DNA of 64,000 bases. Origin: a virus. Made by a program: the position numbers and the translations under genes. The notes beneath the pieces are model-generated. The model made no database searches. It saw only the letters and a program-made list of their open reading frames with translations, and was not told the origin of the DNA. This document shows positions 1,080 through 49,644 of the stretch, in pieces (within the stretch, counting starts at the first letter, position 1; each line of letters begins with the position of its first letter). The stretch covers positions 160,001 to 224,000 of IMG/VR virus record IMGVR_UViG_3300045988_179268, one strand, 5' to 3'.

Positions 1080-1290
1080 TCACCTCGCCTGTGAGAGACG
1101 GGAGAGGTACCTAAAATAAACGGACATTACCAACCCCAATAGCAATTGGGTGAAGATGGTGTCAAGACCAGGAAGGCTGGCGATAGCCAGCTGGAGGGTT
1201 ACCGTCAGGGCTAAGCCTTGACCCGCCTAACCGCGTAGAGGTATTTCCTTATGCGCGGGGGTGGCTCTAAGAGATGGCACATTGCAAAAT
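1080..1290 (+). ncRNA. structured RNA module, copy A (5' leader of ORF 1353 or independent ncRNA)
   Basis: Begins about 8 nt after the -10. Hairpin CACCTC-N17-GAGGT 1081-1109. Conserved blocks GTCAAGACCAGGAAGG and CTGGAGGGTTACCGTCAGGGC are shared with 42808-42978. Hairpin arms covary between copies. Confidence 0.6.
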
Positions 1291-3725: not shown

Positions 3726-4757
3726 ATGTCACGCACTCTCACTACTGAAAAGCGCGTATTTACTACCGAGGACGCGGAACGATTCAAGGCACAGCGCCGA
3801 AAGATGAATACCCGAGCAAATGAAGGTGACATCTCCTCTGTAGAGTTTTTCTGCAATGAAATGGACGCTCTTGCGGAAGCAGGCGTAGAACTATTCTTTA
3901 TCACCCGCCCCGACAGCAATAACCCCACCATTGTCACTGAATCCCTTGCCGCTATCCCTGGCATCAATGCGGATAACCCTGACAAGACCCGCCTCCCTGC
4001 CGGTTCAAGCGAGATTTTCACCGAGGGTTCAACCACCTTCATCATGGGTAACGCTGTGCTGGATATGCGACCTTTCCGCCCTCGCAAGGGTGTGGGTACC
4101 CGCCTGAGCAACCTCAACTTTTTCAAGGGTACCGGCAATACCTCCGTGGTCTTCTCAGGTTCGTTTAATAGTACCGTTATTAAGACGGACAGCCCTCTCA
4201 ATAACGGCATCTTTGACGATGTTATTATTGACGTTACTGCATCAAGCTTTGACGGTGTAACCGCGATGTTTGCCACCCTAATTAGCGGCACCTTTAAGAG
4301 TGCCGGTAAGTTCGCTCTTGCGCGCATCGGTCTGGTTGGCGACATTACTATGGACGTAGATGAAGAGATGGGCGGCGCTCCCTTTGTGGAAAATCGTAGC
4401 GGCTTCATCACCTCTGCTGGTGCGGACTGGGTGAGCACTGCGGAAAAGGCAACTGGCGAGGGCGGCATGGAAGGCTGGTCGCTAGATATGCAGGAAATTA
4501 TGCGCGCAAACGTCGAAGCTGGCGACCTTCCGCGTTTCAATAATTTCTGCGTCAGCCCCGCTACCGATGTTATTGACTGTGACTGTGCAACCTGGCTATT
4601 TTTCCGCGATACCAATAAGAAGAAGAAGCGCCGCGTATGGGTTTGGCGTAATTTTGAGCTGGGCAACCCGGTAGACCCCGAGGAACTTCGCGGCATCAAC
4701 ATTGGTGCTGTTAAGCGTGCCTGGCAGAAGAATGTCGCTAAGACCTGTGTCGAATAA
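3726..4757 (+). CDS. hypothetical protein, 343 aa, central beta-strand repeat-like region
   Basis: SD GGAGGG and own promoter; the longer antisense ORF 3596-4837 is S/L/R-rich and lacks signals. Confidence 0.75.
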   Translation: MSRTLTTEKRVFTTEDAERFKAQRRKMNTRANEGDISSVEFFCNEMDALAEAGVELFFITRPDSNNPTIVTESLAAIPGINADNPDKTRLPAGSSEIFTEGSTTFIMGNAVLDMRPFRPRKGVGTRLSNLNFFKGTGNTSVVFSGSFNSTVIKTDSPLNNGIFDDVIIDVTASSFDGVTAMFATLISGTFKSAGKFALARIGLVGDITMDVDEEMGGAPFVENRSGFITSAGADWVSTAEKATGEGGMEGWSLDMQEIMRANVEAGDLPRFNNFCVSPATDVIDCDCATWLFFRDTNKKKKRRVWVWRNFELGNPVDPEELRGINIGAVKRAWQKNVAKTCVE

Positions 4758-4764
4758 TTAGTAG

Positions 4765-4800
4765 TAAGCCGGGTGTCCCGTAAGAGGGGTGCCCGGCTTA
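4765..4800 (+). terminator. hairpin terminator
   Basis: TAAGCCGGG / CCCGGCTTA after the stop of 3726-4757. Confidence 0.6.
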
Positions 4801-4849
4801 CTATATTTAAGATGCAAATGAACGTCGAGACTTCCACTCATGAAGAATA

Positions 4850-4860
4850 TGTGGTACACT
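4850..4860 (+). promoter_or_regulatory. extended -10 promoter motif (TGTGGTACACT)
   Basis: Upstream of ORF 4905. Confidence 0.7.
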
Positions 4861-4904
4861 ATTATTACTAGTTGAAGAACCAGCCCTGAAAGGATGATTG
4901 ACGC

Positions 4905-5390
4905 ATGTACACGCGCAAATATTACACCCCCGGTAGCTATGAGTGGATGCCGCATGGCGATGAAGACGAAATCTGGGAACTTTCCCGCCTCATGCACCTA
5001 GAGTACTGGCATGTCTGCAACATGCTAGGCGAACTTGAAGCGGGGCTAATCGACCGTATGCAGGATGTTCGTTACCATATCCAGCGCAAGGACTGGGATA
5101 CTAAAGCAAGTCGCGAATACCTTGAAGCTATTGAAGGTGCCATTGGCAACCTCTCTCAGGGTACGCTCAACTTGTTCTTCATGGACGGCGCATACTACGG
5201 AACCGAACTTTACGGCGGTCGCGCATGGGTCGTGCCCAATGAGAAGATTCAAGCCACTGAATCGGCACTGAAAGAAGTGGACGATTACATTGTCACGGCT
5301 ATCGACACCTACAACGAGTACCACGAAGAAGCTAAGGAACTGCTTGCACGGGAAAAGGCTCCGCGCCGCCGCACCTGGGTTAAGCCCTAG
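4905..5390 (+). CDS. hypothetical protein, 161 aa
   Basis: SD GAAAGGA, promoter 45 nt upstream. Confidence 0.75.
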   Translation: MYTRKYYTPGSYEWMPHGDEDEIWELSRLMHLEYWHVCNMLGELEAGLIDRMQDVRYHIQRKDWDTKASREYLEAIEGAIGNLSQGTLNLFFMDGAYYGTELYGGRAWVVPNEKIQATESALKEVDDYIVTAIDTYNEYHEEAKELLAREKAPRRRTWVKP

Positions 5391-5558
5391 CAAGATTTTG
5401 TAGTCCAACCCACCAATAGGAATAATAATGAGTAGTAATCGAAACGATAACCCTGACCGAAACATCACTATCGGGTTGTGCGCTATGGCGTTTTTCATTG
5501 TCCTTGGAGCAATCTCCACAATGCTACCGTTCTAGACGTTCCCGCAATAGATTGAAGC

Positions 5559-5569
5559 CGTGCTAGAAT
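5559..5569 (+). promoter_or_regulatory. weaker extended -10-like motif (CGTGCTAGAAT)
   Basis: Fits TGNTANNNT; upstream of ORF 5614. Confidence 0.4.
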
Positions 5570-5613
5570 AGGCACACATATAGAGTTATTTTTAGATACG
5601 GAAGATAGACCAA

Positions 5614-6606
5614 ATGAGCGTAGATATTCGCGTAAGGCGCTTCGCGCAGAGCGACGCAGAACGCACCCTAATGCACACCACTGATGAACGAAACCGCGCA
5701 CCCCTCACGGACGCTCTAAACAAATACTACAAGAAGCTTAAAGCTGACGAAAAGAGCGTCACCAAGGAAGACCTCGAAGAATTGCTCCGTGTCGCCTTCT
5801 ATGTGAGTACGCGACAGTCCAATCGCAACCTAGACATCATCGACCAGTACAAGGCATTTAAAGGAAAGCACCTGTATAACATGCGTGAAACCCACCCCAA
5901 TACCGCAACCCTCAAGCATCTACATGCCCAAGCGCGACAGGAATTAGGCGAAGTCGCGGAGCCTCACGGTAACCTCCAGAACCTACTGGCAAGCTACCAG
6001 AGTGAGTATGACACGCTAACCCGTCAAATTGACAACTACGGTGGCGAACTGGATGACCCGGAAGTTATCGAAAAGGCGGCGCGTCATACCTTCCTCGAAG
6101 GCTCCATTGAGCACATTAAGAAGAGCCTCAGCGACATCAAGGGGCACATGCAGGCGCTTGATGCGAACATTACCCCCGCAACCGCAGAACAGGTAGCAGA
6201 AAACTTCCGACACGCTTACGCAGAGTGCAAACAGTACGCAGACTACACCAAGGTGCTCAAGGATAAGTTCGAACAACACCTCAACGACAAGCTGGAAGCC
6301 AGCTTGCCTAATGCGGCATTTATTGACAAGGCGGCAAAGCGTAAGCGTGAGGTGGATGTAACCAAGTCTCGCGTACACTCTGAGTTGAACACCAAGCGAA
6401 ATGAACTGCTATTCATCGCTAAGTACGGCGAACGACTGAACCGACTCTACGAAGCAATGACTAAAACCCTTATTGATGAAGGTCTGTGCATCACCCGCCT
6501 AGAAGAAGCTCACGTTAAGGCACTCCAGCTCAAGCTAAACGAATATCGCAAGGAATACGAAGACCTCAAGCGAGCAATCGGCGTAAACTGCGACGATAAG
6601 AAGTAG
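5614..6606 (+). CDS. hypothetical coiled-coil-rich protein, 330 aa
   Basis: Long K/E/L-rich ORF; antisense ORF is implausible. Confidence 0.7.
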   Translation: MSVDIRVRRFAQSDAERTLMHTTDERNRAPLTDALNKYYKKLKADEKSVTKEDLEELLRVAFYVSTRQSNRNLDIIDQYKAFKGKHLYNMRETHPNTATLKHLHAQARQELGEVAEPHGNLQNLLASYQSEYDTLTRQIDNYGGELDDPEVIEKAARHTFLEGSIEHIKKSLSDIKGHMQALDANITPATAEQVAENFRHAYAECKQYADYTKVLKDKFEQHLNDKLEASLPNAAFIDKAAKRKREVDVTKSRVHSELNTKRNELLFIAKYGERLNRLYEAMTKTLIDEGLCITRLEEAHVKALQLKLNEYRKEYEDLKRAIGVNCDDKK

Positions 6607-6616
6607 CCCACCCCCA

Positions 6617-6643
6617 CCCCCTAGCTAAGAACCAAGCTAGGGG
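6617..6643 (+). terminator. hairpin (CCCCTAGCT / AGCTAGGGG)
   Basis: Directly after the stop of 5614-6606; no T-run. Confidence 0.45.
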
Positions 6644-8904: not shown

Positions 8905-8931
8905 CTACTGGGTTGCATAGCCTTCAAAATC

Positions 8932-28742: not shown

Positions 28743-30107
28743 TTGGTGGTTACGTCAAAGAAAAAGGGCAAGTCTGAGACTGGCTTGTCACTACCTGGAG
28801 ATGGTTCGCTGTACGACGCGCTAACTAAGCCGCTCATGAAGCCTGCACCTAGTAGGGGTATGTGGTTCCTTGCAGGGCTGGCATGTCTGCTTATTGGTTC
28901 TGGCATGGCGCTTATCTTGTTCACCACGTTTAAGCCGCATGGTGGCTTGGATTATACTCTCAGCCTGTTTCTCCTGGCTTACGCGATGTATACTTTCTTG
29001 CGCGGCATCACTAGTGTAGCAAAGGGATTCTTCAAGGGTGCTAATGAGCCAACACTGCATTACGGTAAGAGGTTCGATGAGGAGTACGAACTTATTCCTC
29101 AGCCTGACACACGTGAAGATGCGCCATATGCGGAACGCTACTTTAAGCGCGACGGCAACACCCTTTATGTACGCATCAAGGGTGACGCTGGCGGGTTTTA
29201 TGACCTCCCCATCTCTTGCTTCTTCGCCAAGGAGCCACTGGATAAGGCAGACAGTATTCGCACTGTCTACGATGGTCTAGATGGGTTCCCGCCGCACATT
29301 AGAATCACTTCTAGCAAGTGGTTTGCTGACAGGCGCTTCCTGCATTACGAGCTTCATGCCCCGAAGTCTGAGAAGCCCGACATTAAGAAACTCATCCACG
29401 AGGTTAATAGTGCCACCTACGGCGAACTTTACACTGAGGCGGCAAGCTCTTTCGATGAGAGTGCTGTAGCTAAGCTGATTGATGAGCCTGTGCGATACCC
29501 TGGCGTGGGTAATCTAGTGGAGGCAATCGACAACATCCTTGAGGATGATGACGACAATGAGGCTGTAGAGGCAACTGTTGAGGAAGCGTACAGTTTTGCG
29601 GCACGCAGTGTGGGTCTGTTCTTCTTGCATCTAGTCACATTTGTGCTTCTTGCGGTTGTAAACTGGCAGATGCACTTTGGTGGCGGCATACAGGCAGTGC
29701 CCCCGGCATTAGTGTCAGTGACACTGTTCCTTGTAGCGCTATCAGCGGTTTCTTCGGTTGCATCCGCAAGGAGCCTAGCTAAGGCTGAAAATAAGTTTGT
29801 TGAGGTTTGGGAGTACGACGACCTACAGTTCGATATGCTCCCCTTCACAAGCACTAATCATGCTGGCGCTAAGGCGGAGGATTACTTCGCTGAGCATAAC
29901 GGTGAGAAGTATGTGCTGTTGCGTGAAGTTGAATACGGAATTATCGGCACCTACAAGATTCCGGCTAACGCGAGGGTTCACTATTCGCTTGATGATGATG
30001 AAACCCCCGGCTGTAACATTGTCGGAAAGGAAGGTGTTCTCAAGGAATTTGTTATTCTGTTCCCGAAGAAGCTTTCCCCATCAGCTACCCCGGCAAGTGA
30101 AGAGTAA
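28743..30107 (+). CDS. membrane protein with internal duplication (TM pair plus soluble domain, twice), 454 aa
   Basis: TTG start 6 nt after GAAAGG; the two halves share an EYELIP/YDDLQFDMLP...YF..GN.YV pattern. Confidence 0.6.
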   Translation: MVVTSKKKGKSETGLSLPGDGSLYDALTKPLMKPAPSRGMWFLAGLACLLIGSGMALILFTTFKPHGGLDYTLSLFLLAYAMYTFLRGITSVAKGFFKGANEPTLHYGKRFDEEYELIPQPDTREDAPYAERYFKRDGNTLYVRIKGDAGGFYDLPISCFFAKEPLDKADSIRTVYDGLDGFPPHIRITSSKWFADRRFLHYELHAPKSEKPDIKKLIHEVNSATYGELYTEAASSFDESAVAKLIDEPVRYPGVGNLVEAIDNILEDDDDNEAVEATVEEAYSFAARSVGLFFLHLVTFVLLAVVNWQMHFGGGIQAVPPALVSVTLFLVALSAVSSVASARSLAKAENKFVEVWEYDDLQFDMLPFTSTNHAGAKAEDYFAEHNGEKYVLLREVEYGIIGTYKIPANARVHYSLDDDETPGCNIVGKEGVLKEFVILFPKKLSPSATPASEE

Positions 30108-40306: not shown

Positions 40307-40420
40307 AGCACCTCATCTGCAAAAACAGGAGGGGTGCCGTGAAACAAACTGTCGAGGAAACCCCCGACCCGCCCTGCACGTGGACGACTCTAACTCATCC
40401 CGGCATATTATTTAGGAGAA
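40307..40420 (+). ncRNA. structured RNA module, minimal copy C (5' leader of the 40430-41707 operon)
   Basis: CACCTC-N16-GGGGTG 40309-40336, then GTCGAGG-AAA-CCCCCGAC-CCGCC 40351-40373. These match the first hairpin and the GTCAGGGC..GAC-CCGCC hairpin of copy A. Confidence 0.5.
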
Positions 40421-40429
40421 ATCATAACC

Positions 40430-40987
40430 ATGCCCCTTTCTACTACTGCAACTTCCATTACTGGTAAGCTTTCTACCACTTTCACCGAACTTCTTGCATC
40501 CAAGGCTTCCTCCCCTGCCTCCCGAAAGGCGAAGATGGATACCGCGACCCGCAATTTTGTCGATACTCTCTTGGACGCTGGCGAGAAGGGTCGCACTCTT
40601 TCACGCCTCGCCTACGATGAAGGCATGTCTGATTCTAAGTGGCTGAGCGAGATGCTGGAGGCTAAGCGCCAGCGTATCGGTAAGCCGGACGAACCGCTCA
40701 CCGGGGTCGAGAACGCCCGCACTAAAGCCATTCTCGCAATCAACACTAAGAAGCGTCGCAAGGCTCTAGGTATCGTCTTCGCCGCCAATTCAATCATGGC
40801 GGCATCCCTGGAAGACGACTTCATCGCCCTGCTTGAGATTGAGGACGACTCCACCTGGATTGAATACGCCCTCACTCGCGGCACTCTTTCACTAATGACG
40901 AACCTTGCTAAGTTTGGCAACTATCTGGCTGACAAGAATATCGCCAAGCTAAAGCGTGAACAGGCAGAACGCGGCGGCAGTCTGTAG
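40430..40987 (+). CDS. hypothetical protein, 185 aa
   Basis: SD AGGAGA; immediately upstream of the recombinase. Confidence 0.7.
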   Translation: MPLSTTATSITGKLSTTFTELLASKASSPASRKAKMDTATRNFVDTLLDAGEKGRTLSRLAYDEGMSDSKWLSEMLEAKRQRIGKPDEPLTGVENARTKAILAINTKKRRKALGIVFAANSIMAASLEDDFIALLEIEDDSTWIEYALTRGTLSLMTNLAKFGNYLADKNIAKLKREQAERGGSL

Positions 40988-40999
40988 GGAACAGTCAAT

Positions 41000-41707
41000 A
41001 TGACCACTCGAAAGCTATTGCCTACTAAACGCATTTATGGGTATGTTCGTGTCAGTACCGCCGGGCAGAATCCTGACCGGCAGGTGTACAACATTCACGA
41101 ATGGGTCAAGGAGAACTATGGTGAAGACGTTTACCACAGCTTAACTCTTGACGGCGCAGATTTTGTCACGGCTGATAAGGTTAGTGGCGCTACCTCAGCT
41201 AATGAGCGTGACGGGCTATCCTATATCCTCGACAATATCCAGCCGCACGATGTGCTTATCACACCTACGGTTGAGAGGTTGGGGCGTGACTCAAAGCATG
41301 TCACAGAGGTGAGGGATATGCTTGAGAAGCGTAAGGTCATCGTTATTTATAGTGACGAGTTGCCGCTTCTTAGCACCCTTGCTACGGAGTCCGGTGAGTA
41401 TCCGCCGGAAAGCTCACTTGAAGCTAACCTTACGCATAAGCTTATCTCGGGTGTAATTTTCGATATTCTGGCGCGTGTTGCCGCATACGAGTACGAAAAC
41501 AGCCGCAAAAGACAGCGCCAAGGCATCGAACGAGCTAAGGCGCGCGGCGCGTACAAGAAACCTAAGTCTCTTACTAACGACAAGCTAGAGGATGCGCGCC
41601 GCAAGATTGACATGGGTATCCCAAAGGCTGAGGTAGCACGTCAGCTTAAGATTAGCCGCGCCACTTTGCGCCGCTACCTTGATGGAATCAGCGTTCCCGA
41701 CGAATAA
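41000..41707 (+). CDS. small serine recombinase (resolvase/invertase family) with C-terminal HTH, 235 aa
   Basis: IYGYVRVSTAGQNPDRQ catalytic-Ser motif, VERLGRD, C-terminal HTH KAEVARQLKISRATLRRYL. Confidence 0.9.
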   Translation: MTTRKLLPTKRIYGYVRVSTAGQNPDRQVYNIHEWVKENYGEDVYHSLTLDGADFVTADKVSGATSANERDGLSYILDNIQPHDVLITPTVERLGRDSKHVTEVRDMLEKRKVIVIYSDELPLLSTLATESGEYPPESSLEANLTHKLISGVIFDILARVAAYEYENSRKRQRQGIERAKARGAYKKPKSLTNDKLEDARRKIDMGIPKAEVARQLKISRATLRRYLDGISVPDE

Positions 41708-41709
41708 TT

Positions 41710-41758
41710 ACAATTCACCCCTCTATGACTAAGCTTCATAGAGGGGTGAATTGTTTCC
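41710..41758 (+). terminator. 19-bp hairpin terminator
   Basis: ACAATTCACCCCTCTATGA / TCATAGAGGGGTGAATTGT followed by TTCC. Confidence 0.8.
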
Positions 41759-41773
41759 ATACACTCGCTAATC

Positions 41774-41784
41774 TGTGGTACAAT
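41774..41784 (+). promoter_or_regulatory. extended -10 promoter motif (TGTGGTACAAT)
   Basis: GCTAATCTGTGGTACAATTATT. Confidence 0.7.
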
Positions 41785-41824
41785 TATTTCTGTAAGGAAT
41801 TTTAGGCAACAGAAAGGCATAGTC

Positions 41825-42763
41825 ATGGAACTTTCCCACGAGGAAATCGCAGACGCTATGCACGACCACTACCGTGAACTCACGCGACTTGAGTATAGTC
41901 TCGTCAGCGTAAGCCTTGAAGCAAGTAAGGCACTCAAGCACTACACGGCAATTATTACCAAATCCATCAACCTCATGGGGTCAGGTCAGTGGTACCCCTG
42001 GCAGGAAGACCGCCACCTACGCATGGTCTGGGCAGTAGTGAAGCAAACTCTCTACAAGACCGACCACTACATCCACCACCTACACAACGACATGAGTGAA
42101 ATGCTCACTAACTGGCATGAAAACTCCAACTGCGTTGAAACGTGCCAGCTTCTACTAGAAGAAGCTGAACAGTATGCGACCACTCGCTTCATTAAAAACG
42201 CTAAGCAGGTCATCCACCGCTGGAAAAACGTTTCACCCATCATTGACGAGATTCTATCCCAGGAGCGTGTACAGCCAGCCGAATACCCACTAGAGGTTCA
42301 CTGCGACGACTACATCACAATGATTAAGGGGTACCTGGAAGCAATGGATGCGGCTACCGACGGAATGATTCAAGCCATGAACATTGTCCGGCGCACAAAG
42401 ACCGTGTACGACCTATGGGATGCTGAGACAATCAACATGAGCACCGGGAAGCCATACCGCAACCGGCAGTACATCCACGACTTCCTCAAGCTTTTCAATT
42501 ATGCGGCAAATGATTCATACCATGAGTACCTGAACGCCCACCATGAGATTCTTTTCTGTTCCGAGACATACAGTCTAGGCGGTGGCTGGGCTGACAACCC
42601 GGAAGGGTTCGCCGGTCGCCTGGAACGCATCACTAAATGGCAGAACGAAAGCCCTGCCATCACTGTAGAAAGTGCAACTAAGGACTTGCGACGCTACAAG
42701 GAATGGTACCCTGACATGCTTAATCTGGTGAATGAAATCGCGGAGAATAATGGGTTTTATTAG
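41825..42763 (+). CDS. hypothetical protein, 312 aa
   Basis: SD GAAAGG. Confidence 0.75.
   Translation: MELSHEEIADAMHDHYRELTRLEYSLVSVSLEASKALKHYTAIITKSINLMGSGQWYPWQEDRHLRMVWAVVKQTLYKTDHYIHHLHNDMSEMLTNWHENSNCVETCQLLLEEAEQYATTRFIKNAKQVIHRWKNVSPIIDEILSQERVQPAEYPLEVHCDDYITMIKGYLEAMDAATDGMIQAMNIVRRTKTVYDLWDAETINMSTGKPYRNRQYIHDFLKLFNYAANDSYHEYLNAHHEILFCSETYSLGGGWADNPEGFAGRLERITKWQNESPAITVESATKDLRRYKEWYPDMLNLVNEIAENNGFY
42705..42759 (+). repeat. direct repeat copy 1 (functional 3' end of 41825-42763)
   Basis: 44 of 55 nt identical to 42981-43035. Confidence 0.8.
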
Positions 42764-42789
42764 GGAAATAAACTAAAACCATTAAAATC

Positions 42790-42800
42790 TGTGATATTAT
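42790..42800 (+). promoter_or_regulatory. extended -10 promoter motif (TGTGATATTAT)
   Basis: TAAAATCTGTGATATTATATT, 9 nt upstream of RNA module B. Confidence 0.6.
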
Positions 42801-42807
42801 ATTCGAT

Positions 42808-42978
42808 AACACCTCGCCCGTGAGAGACAGGAGAGGTGGATAATCTAAACGGGTAGGTAGCTTCGGTTGCCTGTCAAGACCAGGAAAGTTAGCCCTCTTG
42901 GGTTAGCTGGAGGGTCACCGTCAGGGCGAAGCCCTGGCTCATCCCCTGGGTGGCTCTCCCTTACACACGGGGATGACT
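42808..42978 (+). ncRNA. structured RNA module, copy B (no ORF downstream)
   Basis: CACCTC-N17-GAGGTG 42810-38; GGTAGC-TTCG-GTTGCC 42856-71; GTCAAGACCAGGAAAG; GTTAGCCC-TCTT-GGGTTAGC 42888-907; CTGGAGGGTCACC; GTCAGGGC-GAA-GCCCTGGC 42920-38; TCATCCCC/GGGGATGA 42939-76. Confidence 0.6.
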
Positions 42979-42980
42979 CA

Positions 42981-43035
42981 GGTATGCCGACTTGCTAAAT
43001 CTAGTGAATGAAATAGCCGAAAATAACGGGCTTTA
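42981..43035 (+). repeat. direct repeat copy 2: orphan, diverged copy of the last 17 codons of 41825-42763
   Basis: Would encode YADLLNLVNEIAENNGL* versus YPDMLNLVNEIAENNGFY*; a TGA lies immediately upstream in frame. Confidence 0.8.
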
Positions 43036-43070
43036 ATCACCCGACCATATACTACACTCTCCGGCAGTGC

Positions 43071-43125
43071 ATAATAAATGGGAAAACCAATCAATGTAAT
43101 TTTGATTGGTTTTCCCATTTATTAT
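43071..43125. terminator. bidirectional 24-bp perfect hairpin terminator
   Basis: ATAATAAATGGGAAAACCAATCAA / TTGATTGGTTTTCCCATTTATTAT. Confidence 0.8.
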
Positions 43126-43141
43126 AGGCTAGTCGCCTACT

Positions 43142-43612
43142 CTAGAAAAGAGTGGGTTCATAGTCATTAATGAGGTTTCCTAGTGCTGGGCGTTTACGCA
43201 CACCCATGTACTCATCGTGGGTCACGCCTTCTAGTAGACCTAGTTCATAGTATTTAGCTTCGGTTGCAATAATTGCTGATACCATTAGCCTGATGCGTGA
43301 TACGCTGGCGCGCAACATTGAGTCGGATTTGTGGAAGCGAACATATTTAGGGTGTTCCATGCATTCTTCATGTATCCGTGCGTCCGTGTAGGCGTATCCC
43401 TCTGCGTCGCTACTGAGAGGAGATAGTCTTAAATCACCGACAGGGGGTAGGAGTACGCCTTGCCGGGCGGCTTTTAGGTACGACTCAGTGGCATATCTGC
43501 GATTGGTTGTGGCGCATTTTTCCAACGCCATCGCTAATTTAGTATCATTTGACACCCGGAGGGCACCCCCTTCAACATTAGGACTGTGGCTTATCCACCT
43601 GGGCGAAAGCAT
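43142..43612 (-). CDS. hypothetical protein, up to 156 aa (start uncertain)
   Basis: ORF overlaps the upstream gene by 35 nt; an internal GTG or ATG start is possible. Confidence 0.5.
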   Translation of the reverse strand: MLSPRWISHSPNVEGGALRVSNDTKLAMALEKCATTNRRYATESYLKAARQGVLLPPVGDLRLSPLSSDAEGYAYTDARIHEECMEHPKYVRFHKSDSMLRASVSRIRLMVSAIIATEAKYYELGLLEGVTHDEYMGVRKRPALGNLINDYEPTLF

Positions 43613-43958
43613 CAGCGTCTACACGTAGGCGAGTTAGATGCTTGTATGGCTGGCAGTAAATGTTTGTGGCGTGGATATTGTTCGCCTTCATGACATCTAG
43701 TGCTTCGAGTACGTCCGGGTCGGTGGATACAACTTCGCCTGTGACATAAGGGGTTTTAATCTTGCGGTGAACCAAGGGTTTGCCGTCACTGTCATAGAAT
43801 CGAACAATATACTTTTCAGGGTTGTGTGGGTCACGTTCTGCACCGAAACTCTTGGCGTTGGCGCAGATGAACTCCATGAGGGAGCGTCGCTCAAGCGTAG
43901 TGTCTAGCTCTAGGTGAACTTCCAGAGGGTCATCGGCGGTATAAATCTTACTGGTCAT
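43578..43958 (-). CDS. hypothetical protein, 126 aa
   Basis: Clean ORF; weak SD. Confidence 0.6.
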   Translation of the reverse strand: MTSKIYTADDPLEVHLELDTTLERRSLMEFICANAKSFGAERDPHNPEKYIVRFYDSDGKPLVHRKIKTPYVTGEVVSTDPDVLEALDVMKANNIHATNIYCQPYKHLTRLRVDADAFAQVDKPQS

Positions 43959-44084
43959 GAGGTGTTTCTTCTCTGAGTTGTTTATTGTGCATGTAGTCCC
44001 AGCCTATTGGCTGATGGCTTTATGTATATTATTTTAGCATAGGAGGTTTACCTAAAAACTTTATTCATGCACTAACAGGAAAAA

Positions 44085-47756: not shown

Positions 47757-48095
47757 ATGAGTAACACCACCTTTGAACTTCGATATGCCCGGATGCACAC
47801 CCGCAAGTACCTCAAGGGAAAAATGTCGCCCGCCTACGACAATAGGGACGTACACGATGCCTCCCTCAACACGAAGTACGACATGACCGTCACTATGAGC
47901 ATGGTTGAGCGCGACAGCTGGCGCTTACACAATGTGACTGTCCCTAGAGAGAATGTCACTGTTATTGGCGACCTTCGGAACGGGGAGCCTTACGTCATTG
48001 CTGATGATGATTTCAAGCGCTTTGAGGTGCATATTGACATGACCTTTGTTCACGGTGACATGATTAATTTTGTAGTCCCTGAGGTTAATTTCTAA
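47757..48095 (+). CDS. hypothetical protein, 112 aa
   Basis: SD AAAGGA; the stop codon overlaps the end of the TnpB element. Confidence 0.65.
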   Translation: MSNTTFELRYARMHTRKYLKGKMSPAYDNRDVHDASLNTKYDMTVTMSMVERDSWRLHNVTVPRENVTVIGDLRNGEPYVIADDDFKRFEVHIDMTFVHGDMINFVVPEVNF

Positions 48096-48153
48096 CCGTA
48101 ACTGGGAATAACGAAAATCGCGAAACGATACTCGCTATTCCCAGGTTAATTTT

Positions 48154-48327
48154 AGGGTTTTTCAACCCAAGGTCTTACGGCTAACCTACTCCACATAAGC
48201 TCACCTGGTTTCAACTAAAGAGCCACACAACCAGACTTATCACTTACGCTTCTAAGGAGAACACTACCTTAAAGGGAGATGCGCCACTGCCTTGCGTGGC
48301 TACATCTGTATAAGGCTGTATGTAAGT
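48154..48327 (-). ncRNA. candidate omega-RNA scaffold region of the TnpB element
   Basis: Non-coding stretch between the tnpB stop and the terminal hairpin, which is where omega RNAs are encoded in characterised TnpB loci. No transcript evidence. Confidence 0.3.
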
Positions 48328-49644
48328 TTATTTTACGCTATCTTTGTAGCCTTGTCCACGTCGCGCGATAACGTATGCGGCACCAACATGTGTGTTTAGT
48401 TTCATTGTTGGGCAGTAGAGTTGTTTCGCTAACCATGATGTCCACGCGGGGTTTACACGCCTCACAGATATAGCGCTCCTGTAGGCGCGTCGCTCGATTT
48501 TGTCTATAAACTGCCGATACGCAAGTGAGTGTAGCATCTCGTTGTACTTCCGCCCCTGTTTACGTAGGGTGCTTGCTTTTGCAGTCTTGAAGTTAAGGTC
48601 CTCAACGCAGATGTCCTTTCCTGTCGTTAGCGCGCGTTCCACAACCTTTGTCGCAATCAACTCTAAATCTGTGGACGTTCTATTTCCTGCCTTGAAACGA
48701 TAGGGTAGGAGTTGCGTGTCGGTTAGGTGTCCATACTGGTTCGTTTCCGCTAGGGTCACGAAGCCCTTGTTGAAGTCTAAGCCAATGGTTCCATGCGTGG
48801 AACGTGTCTGAAAGTCGCTCTTGTCCATCTGAATTTCAAAGGTGCAGTACAGGTAGAAACGTCCACGCTTTTTAATAATTTTGAAGCTCAAAGGGGTGTT
48901 GCGCTGGCGGAGCGCCTCTTTAATCCACCTTTTATGGTGGTTAAAATACACGCGACCGTAAACATACTTATCCTTAGCGTTCTTAAACCCGCCAATATCC
49001 TTGCGCAACCTCAGTTCAAACTGATTGTTCTTCGAGTTAAACCACAAATGCAAGATTTGGTTACCTGATGCTTCACTCTTCGAGCCAATAAACGACATAT
49101 GGGCGTCGCGTCTATCTATAAAAGCTTGGTAATCGGTTTGTAAGAGCCGCTTGCTACCAAAGCAGATTTCGTGCCGCCCAGATTCTATCTGGTAGCTCAA
49201 GTTTGCTGATTTTTGCTTCAGCTTATTGAGCTTACTTTTCTGAGCGACAAGCTTCCGTTTAAGGTTTCGGTACTTACCTAGACAGACAGGCAAACCTGTC
49301 TTTAGCGCGGACTTTCCAACCTCTAGGGCGTGGATATTGGCTTCTAGGACTTTGATTTTGTGGGCTAGTTGCTTTTGCTCATGAGCTTTCAGCTCTTTTA
49401 GTGCGTTGAGCTGACCTTGCGCATCGGCAATGATGGAGTTCGCTGTTCGTTTCAGAATTCCGTAAGTTTTTTGAAGATGGGTGTTGTAGCTAGATTTGTT
49501 AAAATCTGGACTGTTTCTGATAGCGTAGAAAGTTTTTCGCTGAGCCTGCGCGTAAGTCCCGCGAGCGCTCTCGAAATAATCGATAATGTCTTGGTTATTC
49601 TTTTCATGAAGCTGTGTCACAGTAGTGAACTTACGCTTAATCAC
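48328..49644 (-). CDS. tnpB: TnpB-like protein, divergent: no zinc ribbon, His where the RuvC-III Asp is expected, 438 aa
   Basis: GTG start behind AGGGGAG. IGLDFNKGFVTLAE (Asp), ICVEDLNFKT (Glu), RVNPAWTSW, NTHVGAAYVIARRG. Confidence 0.8.
   Translation of the reverse strand: MIKRKFTTVTQLHEKNNQDIIDYFESARGTYAQAQRKTFYAIRNSPDFNKSSYNTHLQKTYGILKRTANSIIADAQGQLNALKELKAHEQKQLAHKIKVLEANIHALEVGKSALKTGLPVCLGKYRNLKRKLVAQKSKLNKLKQKSANLSYQIESGRHEICFGSKRLLQTDYQAFIDRRDAHMSFIGSKSEASGNQILHLWFNSKNNQFELRLRKDIGGFKNAKDKYVYGRVYFNHHKRWIKEALRQRNTPLSFKIIKKRGRFYLYCTFEIQMDKSDFQTRSTHGTIGLDFNKGFVTLAETNQYGHLTDTQLLPYRFKAGNRTSTDLELIATKVVERALTTGKDICVEDLNFKTAKASTLRKQGRKYNEMLHSLAYRQFIDKIERRAYRSAISVRRVNPAWTSWLAKQLYCPTMKLNTHVGAAYVIARRGQGYKDSVK

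Follow-up and report, generated by a model that had tools for sequence, protein, structure and literature searches.

A Cas12n-type guide-RNA cassette flush with a displaced phage gene end: a probable scar of guide-protospacer recombination

In a 64,000-nt window of viral DNA (the whole stretch analyzed here, positions 160,001 to 224,000 of IMG/VR record IMGVR_UViG_3300045988_179268), a gene that we call gene X is followed by a promoter-like site, a structured RNA module (module B) and then a second, diverged copy of its own last 55 nt. We found that the RNA belongs, judged by its sequence and predicted fold, to the guide-RNA family of the CRISPR nuclease Cas12n, that related phages carry gene X with nothing inserted behind it, and that the second copy starts at the very base where a guide would start, at a site marked in native alleles by a Cas12n-type protospacer-adjacent motif (PAM). 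The same cassette stands beside gene X in a second genetic background. In our judgement the locus is probably the scar of a recombination event between the guide of such a cassette and its protospacer.

Module-free alleles point to an insertion at the end of gene X

The duplication had been reported, along with a promoter and an RNA module, in an earlier interpretation made without database searches (the sequence-only reading). Both a repeat search of the window (family D2) and direct reading bore it out: positions 42705-42759 and 42981-43035 are identical at 44 of 55 nt (80%), where about 14 matches are expected by chance for two 55-nt stretches. Retranslation likewise returned the reported endings, YPDMLNLVNEIAENNGFY for the upstream and YADLLNLVNEIAENNGL for the downstream copy, the latter reaching a stop codon of its own (TAA, 43034-43036). 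To the promoter-like site and RNA module described between the copies we add a 29-nt CRISPR-type repeat. The locus comprises the following elements, in which related loci are designated by L numbers, ORF stands for open reading frame, UTR for untranslated region and tracrRNA for trans-activating CRISPR RNA:

41825-42763 (+): gene X, encoding a 312-aa protein without assigned function (from the ORF list); the replacement end linked to the cassette makes up its last 59 nt.
42702-42704 (+): AAT, a PAM-type trinucleotide (AAH), directly 5' of the upstream copy; the empty alleles all have it ahead of the native protospacer as well.
42705-42763 (+): gene end in its upstream, functional copy, ..YPDMLNLVNEIAENNGFY*; the cassette is accompanied by the last 29 nt of this copy, the 'FY tail'.
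42764-42809 (+): putative cassette promoter region, with an extended -10 element (TG at 42792-42793, TATTAT at 42795-42800).
42810-42944 (+): module B, the Cas12n tracrRNA-like scaffold, consisting of P1 with a UGAGAGA loop, a variable P2, P3 and P4 (model R1, 129.6 bits, E=5.8e-32).
42939-42946 (+): anti-repeat UCAUCCCC, read from the sequence as complementary to GGGGAUGA of the repeat (42969-42976); equivalent of stem 5.
42952-42980 (+): single 29-nt CRISPR repeat, slightly degenerate, GGCTCTCCCTTACACACGGGGATGACTCA, recognized by the repeat family consensus, the 61-nt period and the Rothia array repeat.
42981-43002 (+): guide position, occupied by GGTATGCCGACTTGCTAAATCT, the 22 nt with which the displaced native gene end begins; L027, an independent background, has the identical sequence.
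43003-43036 (+): rest of this displaced end (..VNEIAENNGL*); its allele type is the local, L006/L028-like one (30/34 to L006 and to L028).
43037-43130 (+): native 3' UTR of gene X and bidirectional terminator, with the stem-loop at 43071-43125 (70/94 to L006/L028, compared with 52/94 to L027).

The window looks like a piece of a large phage genome, in which most ORFs belong to no family and a TGTGGTAnAnT promoter motif recurs. Gene X has no match in Pfam, PHROG or NCBIfam; it is found in identical form on contigs of about 319 kb, and its homologs (P0001-P0007) reside only on large phage-like contigs. No relatives of gene X were found in IMG/VR, and blastn of positions 41000-44000 against deposited phages returned nothing.

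Alleles of gene X without the RNA module, for which the sequence-only reading had suggested a search, do exist in relatives (L006-L009, L024-L026 and L028); a retained second paralog, which it had suggested as the other outcome, was found in none. In these empty alleles gene X ends in ...WYAD(L/M)LNLVNEIAENNGF*, followed by about 105 nt of UTR and terminator and then by a convergent gene. The downstream copy in the window matches these native ends at 48-50 of 56 nt, as against 44 of 56 for its own upstream copy, and what lies beyond it is orthologous to the sequence that follows intact gene X in the module-free relatives, with a UTR that begins tcacccgacc... and the same terminator. Its closer likeness to native ends and its native context indicate that the downstream copy is the ancestral gene end, still in place, in which case the upstream copy (...FY*), the promoter and the RNA constitute the insertion. 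We consider this origin of the duplication, as an insertion relative to the empty alleles, to be well supported by the comparison.

Two elements that the sequence-only reading had placed downstream of the duplication change their meaning in this light: the supposed degenerate promoter TATACTACACT is native 3' UTR, at which relatives carry CATACAGCACTCTC, and the hairpin at 43071-43125, rightly called a terminator, belongs to gene X itself. Its first account of the duplication, in which a promoter-RNA cassette came in bringing its own gene end, is supported by the existence of empty alleles and right in outline. A third stretch that resembles the 55-mer, at 29494-29548 inside ORF 28743-30107, is 62% identical, probably by chance.

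Module B is related to the tracrRNA region of Cas12n

The module RNA matched no Rfam family at E values up to 10. Pattern scans and look-ups nevertheless recovered numerous copies from two IMG/VR contigs of 306 and 360 kb as well as from further large contigs, among them at least 24 distinct ones in related phage contigs of about 300 kb. Many are interleaved with tRNAs (13 among the module runs of L001, 7 in L005) and then followed by mini-arrays of 29-nt repeats and 32-nt spacers; others lie behind promoters ahead of genes, or flank a gene for a 520-aa TnpB-like protein. An alignment of 24 copies revealed four helices, and 18 of the 33 pairs have undergone compensatory change. A 29-nt CRISPR-type repeat (consensus GTTTTCCCCGTACACGYGGGGATGGCTCC) closes each scaffold, and many continue with further repeats at a 61-nt period.

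In the related phages L012 and L035, the 520-aa protein matches the Cas12n of Rothia dentocariosa (PDB 9J09/9UDI) over residues 16-519 with E=4e-172, and a module begins about 20 nt past the stop codon of this phage cas12n. The nearest cellular relatives of the phage protein are chromosomal proteins of Rothia mucilaginosa (54-58% identity). A covariance model built from the phage modules alone (R1) also found a match of full model length in an R. mucilaginosa locus (L055 5546-5702; 45 bits, E=1.6e-10), where it overlaps the last 135 nt of the cas12n ORF (4001-5680) and is followed by an array of 7 sister repeats, GTTTTCCCCGTATGCGCGGGGATGAGCCC, with 32-nt spacers. The cas12n 3' end is the known location of the Cas12n tracrRNA (PMC12216341).

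The cryo-electron microscopy structure of RdCas12n contains a pseudoknot between the loop of stem 1 and bases -4 to -2 ahead of the guide (PMC12216341). Module B holds a candidate for the same contact on the basis of complementarity, between GAG of the P1 loop (42822-42824) and CUC at -4 to -2 (42977-42979), and this pairing covaries at two positions, from GAG:CUC in the phages to GGC:GCC in Rothia. Moreover, the anti-repeat:repeat pair UCAUCCCC:GGGGAUGA is identical in module B and in Rothia L055, and by our own count the phage consensus repeat agrees with the R. mucilaginosa repeat at 24 of 29 positions. The R1 match at the cas12n 3' end, the pseudoknot and the anti-repeat together argue that the module is a tracrRNA-like scaffold fused to its first repeat, a natural single-guide RNA gene, and by these sequence relationships module B is a member of the Cas12n guide-RNA family.

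Positions 42764-43002 can accordingly be described as a putative stand-alone guide-RNA gene, with its own promoter, a scaffold of about 135 nt, one fused repeat and a guide, and with a predicted transcription start at about 42805-42808; the promoter resembles the recurrent TGTGGTAnAnT promoters of this phage (families D1, D4, D7 and D10). The sequence-only reading had proposed that this RNA, having no ORF to regulate, acts in trans or on its own, and that view gains support from a scaffold of Cas12n tracrRNA type whose fused repeat places the displaced gene end in guide position.

Model R1 recognizes module A (1081-1228, 127.7 bits), module B and one decayed copy (40309-40374) in the window. 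Including its degenerate repeat, module A spans 1081-1268 (+); it follows a promoter of its own and lies upstream of a DUF7448 gene (1353-1835). The same DUF7448 gene and 5' UTR occur without a module in L059 and L060, where the upstream gene differs, marking a mosaic breakpoint. In the decayed module (+ strand; 14.7 bits, E=0.02) P1 and P4 are recognizable and P2-P3 are missing; it follows a promoter-like site and stands upstream of ORF 40430-40987, and L003 and L004 carry a full module in the corresponding place, ahead of the homologous gene.

The homology of nuclease, scaffold and repeat makes Rothia the probable host. Six spacers from Rothia arrays, compared with all sequence in hand, gave only chance matches of 12-14 nt, which leaves the host assignment indirect.

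Several junctions beside modules lie flush with a PAM

The repeat of module B ends at 42980, and the ancestral gene end begins at the next base, 42981. That sequence is preceded by AAT in all native alleles as well as in the upstream copy of the carrier itself (..caaggaat and then GG(T/C)TA.. are common to the window, L006, L024, L027, L028 and L010), and TCA, which is no PAM, precedes the guide locus in the window. The PAM of RdCas12n is preferably AAC, with AAH tolerated (PMC12216341).

Three other module-adjacent rearrangements have the same PAM-flush form. In L031 a cassette follows an intact copy of an unrelated gene, gene Y, and is itself followed by a 200-nt remnant of that gene, the 3' 161 nt of which differ from the native L058 allele at one position; its first base directly follows the PAM, natively AAT. 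In L012 the downstream gene is represented by its last 197 nt (189/197 to L004), which directly adjoin the repeat; its 5' part is gone relative to L003 and L004, and the native PAM is AAC. In L013 a 22-nt guide copy stands directly ahead of the native start of a resolvase gene, a position preceded by AAA in L012 and L003 and by GAA in L004. Two array spacers, one against a nearby gene of the same phage family and the other against the scaffold of another module type, both have AAC as PAM. Overall, AAH was present at 6 of 6 independent protospacers or junctions (AAC, AAC, AAT, AAT, AAC, AAA), where the chance expectation is about 0.056 for each site, in agreement with the published PAM of RdCas12n. 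Gene Y carries another insertion in L002, with the same promoter-module-remnant layout and a last repeat so decayed that the exact junction is not placeable.

The sequence-only reading had likened the duplication to integrase (att-type) elements that target gene termini. This analogy fails, because gene Y received its 200-nt remnant by the same process and because two further sites join the module repeat to sequence further downstream, with the intervening gene partly or wholly gone relative to L003 and L004; the position within the gene is set instead by a PAM-adjacent protospacer.

Several details of these loci merit separate mention. In L013 (2121-2170) the module repeat is followed by a discrete 22-nt guide copy, GGACATAGTATGGCACTAAGGA, and then by the native sequence starting over from its first base, which puts this junction out of register, and a simple in-register crossover does not account for it; the copy has the same length as the guide stretch conserved between the window and L027. 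The L005 spacer at 1872-1904 is directed against a gene about 800 nt downstream, matching it at 31 of 33 nt, with an AAC PAM, in a member of the same phage family (L013 6605-6637) and with more mismatches in its own genome (L005 2664-2696), a recurring theme of a neighbor gene whose self copy is mismatched. The L012 array spacer at 6599-6631, GGGCACTCACGTGTCAAGACTAGGAAGGCTGAA, matches P2/P3 of a different module subtype (L001 1936-1968), next to the conserved UAAAC, which supplies an AAC PAM, and modules thus appear, from such matches, to target other modules.

The cassette has been placed into different gene X backgrounds

A second carrier, L027, shares with the window the FY-type tail, promoter, scaffold, repeat and guide nt 1-22. 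From nt 23 on, its remnant, like its UTR and terminator, is of a different, L024-like type. The flanks of the window on either side of the shared segments were closer to the empty alleles L028 and L006. Identities of the window to L027 and to the empty alleles L028 and L006 were as follows:

FY tail: L027 26/29; L028 21/29, L006 19/29.
Promoter: L027 46/46 (also identical to L010); L028 and L006, no comparable match.
Scaffold: L027 133/142; L028 and L006, no comparable match.
Repeat: L027 27/29; L028 and L006, no comparable match.
Guide nt 1-22: L027 22/22; L028 20/22, L006 19/22.
Body of gene X, last 280 nt: L027 246/280; L028 257/280, L006 242/280.
Upstream copy, first 30 nt: L027 23/30; L028 25/30, L006 25/30.
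Remnant nt 23-56: L027 24/34; L028 30/34, L006 30/34.
UTR and terminator: L027 52/94; L028 70/94, L006 70/94.

The remnants of the window and L027 differ at 11 positions, all of them past nt 22 and 9 of them synonymous; by our own count, third-codon differences number 0 of 7 in nt 1-22 and 9 of 11 in nt 23-56 (one-sided Fisher test calculated by hand, about 0.001). The differences of 43003-43036 from other remnants and from native ends are also nearly all synonymous. Such a preponderance of synonymous changes implies that divergence took place when both remnants still functioned as gene ends, hence in separate backgrounds. As judged from these alignments, this implies that a patch of about 270 nt, made up of gene tail, cassette and 22-nt guide, was placed into at least two backgrounds.

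In both carriers, mismatches between the guide and the functional gene end lie mainly at positions 5, 6, 8 and 11/12. For the window's own upstream copy, which after AAT reads GGTACCCTGACATGCTTAAT, the mismatches within the first 20 positions of the protospacer are at 5, 6, 8, 12 and 17. Between the two carriers' functional copies, 7 nucleotide differences fall in non-synonymous codons and 2 in synonymous ones. Such a mismatch pattern would look like escape from targeting, in numbers that are small.

L010 and L011 represent a derivative that arose later by deletion of most of the remnant, the whole guide included (about 44 nt in our alignment; 4160-4172 compared with L027). Their repeat handle is altered relative to L027. 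The serine recombinase gene upstream is fragmented in L010, L011 and L027, and intact in the window and the empty alleles.

A model of guide-directed recombination

The best reading of these results, which we hold to be probable with real room for doubt, is that the locus is a scar of recombination (homing) between the guide and the protospacer of a phage-borne type V-N (V-U4) Cas12n guide cassette. As a mechanism, homing is plausible but unproven. The cassette would originally have stood just downstream of gene X in another phage, carrying a spacer against the PAM-adjacent sequence of gene X in rivals (AAT followed by GGTATGCCGAC...). Its guide DNA would recombine with the protospacer in a module-free phage; donor gene tail, promoter, scaffold, repeat and guide would be copied in, and the recipient's gene end would be displaced behind the repeat, keeping its native UTR and terminator. 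The guide would then be the first 20-22 nt or so of the original 3' end of gene X. Depending on whether the target lies upstream or downstream of the module, the outcome would be a duplication from the protospacer to the gene end (window, L027, L031) or a deletion (L012). Since the crossover would also remove any downstream repeat, the model offers an explanation for 'orphan' modules with a single repeat.

Alleles that match the guide (AAT-GGTATGCCGACTTGCTAAAT) would be cut and converted, resulting in a homing-like spread, and the carrier genome itself should be immune, given the TCA in place of a PAM at its guide locus and the PAM-proximal mismatches of its functional copy. In this scheme Cas12n cleavage of the target would stimulate repair, as we infer from the PAM rule, the short conversion tract and the right boundary at nt 22/23. 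The nuclease would thereby be involved through a presumed chain of transcription, loading of Cas12n from phage or host, cleavage, and repair stimulated by the cut.

As a bolder and tentative proposal, which may well turn out wrong, stand-alone Cas12n single-guide cassettes in phages of about 300 kb (probably of Rothia) could be natural RNA-guided gene drives. The guide would be directed against rival alleles of the adjoining gene, cut rivals would copy in the cassette together with the immune allele, and the displaced target would turn into the guide of the new copy. New guides would then arise by juxtaposition and recombination, as in TnpB omega RNAs, rather than only through Cas1-Cas2.

Weighing the model against other explanations

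A number of findings weigh against guide-directed recombination. The repeat hairpin of module B has one internal mismatch. No perfect target was found, as every known native allele differs from the 20-nt guide at 2 or more positions. Neither the exact 20-nt guide nor the cassette itself was found in IMG/VR and the JGI metagenomes; as exact-match scans missed even the cassette, those collections seemingly do not cover this lineage. At the empty sites corresponding to module A (L059 and L060), GTT or GCT rather than AAH precedes the junction, which lies at a mosaic breakpoint. A tblastn search found no cas12n in the window; the gene is present in the relatives L012 and L035 and absent from the syntenic spot in L013, and because of these absences some of the phages may depend on host Cas12n. 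The phage repeat is also of the type I-E class, agreeing at 27 of 29 positions with the repeat beside cse1-cse2-cas7-cas5-cas6e in L017, a Lactobacillus metagenome-assembled genome (MAG). A PAM-flush junction is explicable by a PAM-selected spacer combined with homologous recombination and is no proof of cleavage, and the allele sample is small and drawn from highly mosaic phages.

Several of these points are what one would expect of ordinary mosaic recombination in which no nuclease takes part, the 20-33 nt of homology between spacer and target merely offering a passive crossover point and copy B now being a relic or an extra source of tracrRNA. The module A junction without a PAM, the lack of a known matching target and of cas12n within the window, the decayed module at 40309-40374, and the retention of the cassette by L010 and L011 despite deletion of the guide all fit this explanation, which we regard as unlikely yet a serious contender. 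It accounts less readily for AAH at 6 of 6 junctions or protospacers, for a patch as short as about 270 nt whose right edge, at guide nt 22/23, resembles that of a repair tract, and for mismatches in the carriers that cluster PAM-proximally with an excess of non-synonymous change, none of which is decisive.

An RNA decoy would require no target at all: a promoter-driven solitary repeat and scaffold could titrate host Cas12n, or Cas6e/Cascade, with the gene fragment being irrelevant, in the manner of the viral solitary repeat units described as RNA anti-CRISPRs (Racrs; PMC10651486). Like those units, module B has a solitary repeat just after a promoter and no adjoining cas gene; its scaffold and anti-repeat are close to the chromosomal ones of Rothia, and the great number of modules within tRNA arrays suggests high expression. 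Unlike those units, it combines a full tracr-like scaffold with a PAM-defined sequence in guide position, and many sister modules bear genuine spacers that match related phages. Related phages also encode their own Cas12n beside the modules, and the PAM-flush junctions would be left unexplained. We consider a decoy improbable.

We think it no less improbable that the effector is a host type I-E Cascade, served by classic virus-borne mini-arrays in which the scaffold is a leader-like or processing element. By sequence class and 61-nt period the phage repeats do resemble those of type I-E (29-nt repeats with a CCCCG..CGGGG hairpin and an 8-nt handle, and 32-nt spacers), one phage repeat agrees at 27 of 29 positions with the repeat adjoining the L017 cas genes, and an AAN PAM whose -1 base is the last base of the repeat in 2 of 3 cases fits acquisition in the type I-E style. 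Against this stand the homology of the scaffold to the Cas12n tracrRNA region and a pseudoknot and anti-repeat in keeping with the Cas12n structure, and a lone repeat without a downstream one cannot yield a canonical type I-E CRISPR RNA for the sequence behind it. Both uses are compatible with each other, and type I-E Cas1-Cas2 may well be the supplier of spacers.

Least credible of all, and contradicted by the empty alleles, is a deleted tandem paralog, the second account given by the sequence-only reading, or a site-specific integration by the neighboring serine recombinase (41000-41707): a resolvase/invertase gene does lie directly upstream and L002 has tandem paralogs beside gene Y, but no relative holds a second gene X, the empty sites comprise a single gene with the same UTR and terminator that now frame the remnant, the resolvase is present in empty and filled alleles alike, scars of the same kind mark the gene Y loci, in whose examined stretches no resolvase was called, and repeats that are 80% identical are not the identical cores of att sites.

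Other candidates were rejected. A diversity-generating retroelement is at odds with a short repeat in which only 4 of 11 differences fall at adenines of the second copy, and no reverse transcriptase was seen nearby. A self-splicing intron with alternative 3' exons, or a trans-splicing ribozyme, was dropped because the empty alleles and the Cas12n homology explain the layout. ARAGORN found no tRNA or transfer-messenger RNA (tmRNA) in the window, and no T-arm was seen, which speaks against a tmRNA-like tagging RNA; against a riboswitch or leader stand the lack of an Rfam match noted above and the lack of an ORF downstream of copy B. As to TnpB omega RNAs of known families, distant TnpB relatives carry a 'Transposase-2' motif that the module does not match, and as to an IS200/IS605 TnpB-omega RNA element, no TnpA and no conserved left end were recognized and the Rfam omega-RNA families were unmatched.

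Relation to known systems

Free-standing homing endonucleases of T-even phages spread by break repair between co-infecting phages and co-convert flanking markers. As in the model proposed here, they involve a selfish cassette that brings a cleavage-resistant allele of the adjoining gene; unlike them, the cassette would take its specificity from an RNA guide, with the nuclease elsewhere in the genome or in the host. Omega-RNA-guided homing of TnpB/IscB transposons, in which copying is directed by the guide, was reportedly described by Meers et al. in 2023. There, too, a scaffold is followed 3' by a guide that is flanking DNA, the empty site consists of the target-adjacent motif or PAM plus that sequence, and cutting favors copying by repair. 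Here there is no TnpA and there are no transposon ends, and on its left the inserted patch consists of a gene-specific substitute for the end of the target gene, which argues for homologous recombination rather than transposition. Varble et al. are said to have reported, in 2019, spacer-protospacer recombination between phages and host CRISPR arrays that leads to transduction. That case resembles ours in that a crossover between spacer and target joins CRISPR-adjacent DNA to a phage genome exactly at the protospacer, and differs in that a host array recombines with a phage there, whereas both partners would be phages here and the product a heritable cassette with an immune allele.

Compared with the Cas12n systems of Rothia and other Actinobacteria, the phage modules have a homologous scaffold, the corresponding pseudoknot and anti-repeat stem, 29-nt repeats of the same family with 32-nt spacers and an AAH PAM, with a closely homologous 520-aa effector in relatives. 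They differ in being phage-borne, in a scaffold that stands apart from the nuclease ORF and is linked covalently to the first repeat, in their copy number (up to 6 in 6.6 kb, with promoters of their own or between tRNAs), and in that many copies comprise one repeat plus a 'guide' that is adjoining DNA. Virus-borne mini-CRISPR arrays used in inter-viral conflict (PMC11656645) are likewise short, without adaptation genes, with host-like repeats and with spacers against close relatives of the carrier, whose own copy is mismatched; those arrays use host effectors and have no structured tracr-like scaffold.

Cas12n with an AAH PAM, viral mini-arrays against related viruses and solitary repeat units are already known. 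In the literature and deposited phage genomes that we searched there was no phage-borne Cas12n system, no tracrRNA uncoupled from an ORF, fused to a repeat and dispersed as guide genes among tRNAs, and no PAM-flush duplication or deletion at such modules; the searched literature held no account of recombination scars that duplicate or delete a target gene flush with a PAM. Among the deposited phages of INPHARED no close Cas12n was found, the best match having 30% identity.

The odd anatomy of the locus is explained by a testable rule, according to which the junction falls between repeat handle and guide on the one side and between PAM and protospacer on the other. Cas12n, regarded as the earliest step from TnpB to CRISPR-Cas12, is here present on large phages. 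If cleavage-driven copying is true, the cassettes would constitute a natural RNA-guided homing system between competing phages and a source of small duplications and deletions shaping phage genomes, with a bearing on the evolution of guide acquisition, as well as a ready set of compact natural single-guide scaffolds for Cas12n engineering. In the bolder gene-drive proposal they would be a living intermediate between transposon-style and CRISPR-style acquisition of guides.

Further observations in the window and its relatives

On the minus strand of the window, a full-length Rfam IS605-orfB-I RNA (48092-48316, 195.9 bits) lies 12 nt past a 438-aa ORF (48328-49644). The ORF has no Pfam or PDB match, only weak ones to the TnpB family over residues 324-403 (NCBIfam TIGR01766, 41.9 bits). 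Its product appears to be TnpB-like but diverged, and to be served by an omega RNA of its own that is distinct from the Cas12n modules.

A high-GC viral contig (L036, 4060-4300) encodes a TnpB/Cas12n relative (39% identity) with an array of its own, composed of a 29-nt repeat, GTACGGCCCGGGCGCGCGAGGGCTGACCG, and spacers of about 32 nt. Model R1 reaches only 4.5 bits on this contig, where an apparent GGU:ACC pseudoknot is suggestive only. The distant relatives L039 and L040 have the Rfam Transposase-2 RNA instead of an array.

The promoter-like sequence TTGCAT..N17..TGTGGTA(G/C)ACT, with an extended -10 element, precedes many gene blocks in the window (families D1, D4, D7 and D10), among others at 8913, 28021, 39075, 51890, 19169, 31635, 49827 and 59250.

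In the Lactobacillus MAG (L017, 182-5567), the type I-E array apparently begins soon past cas6e, the ORF of which ends at 4473, with no cas1 or cas2 between. Its repeats are nearly identical to those of the phage and Rothia Cas12n arrays, placing Cas12n and type I-E arrays in one repeat class.

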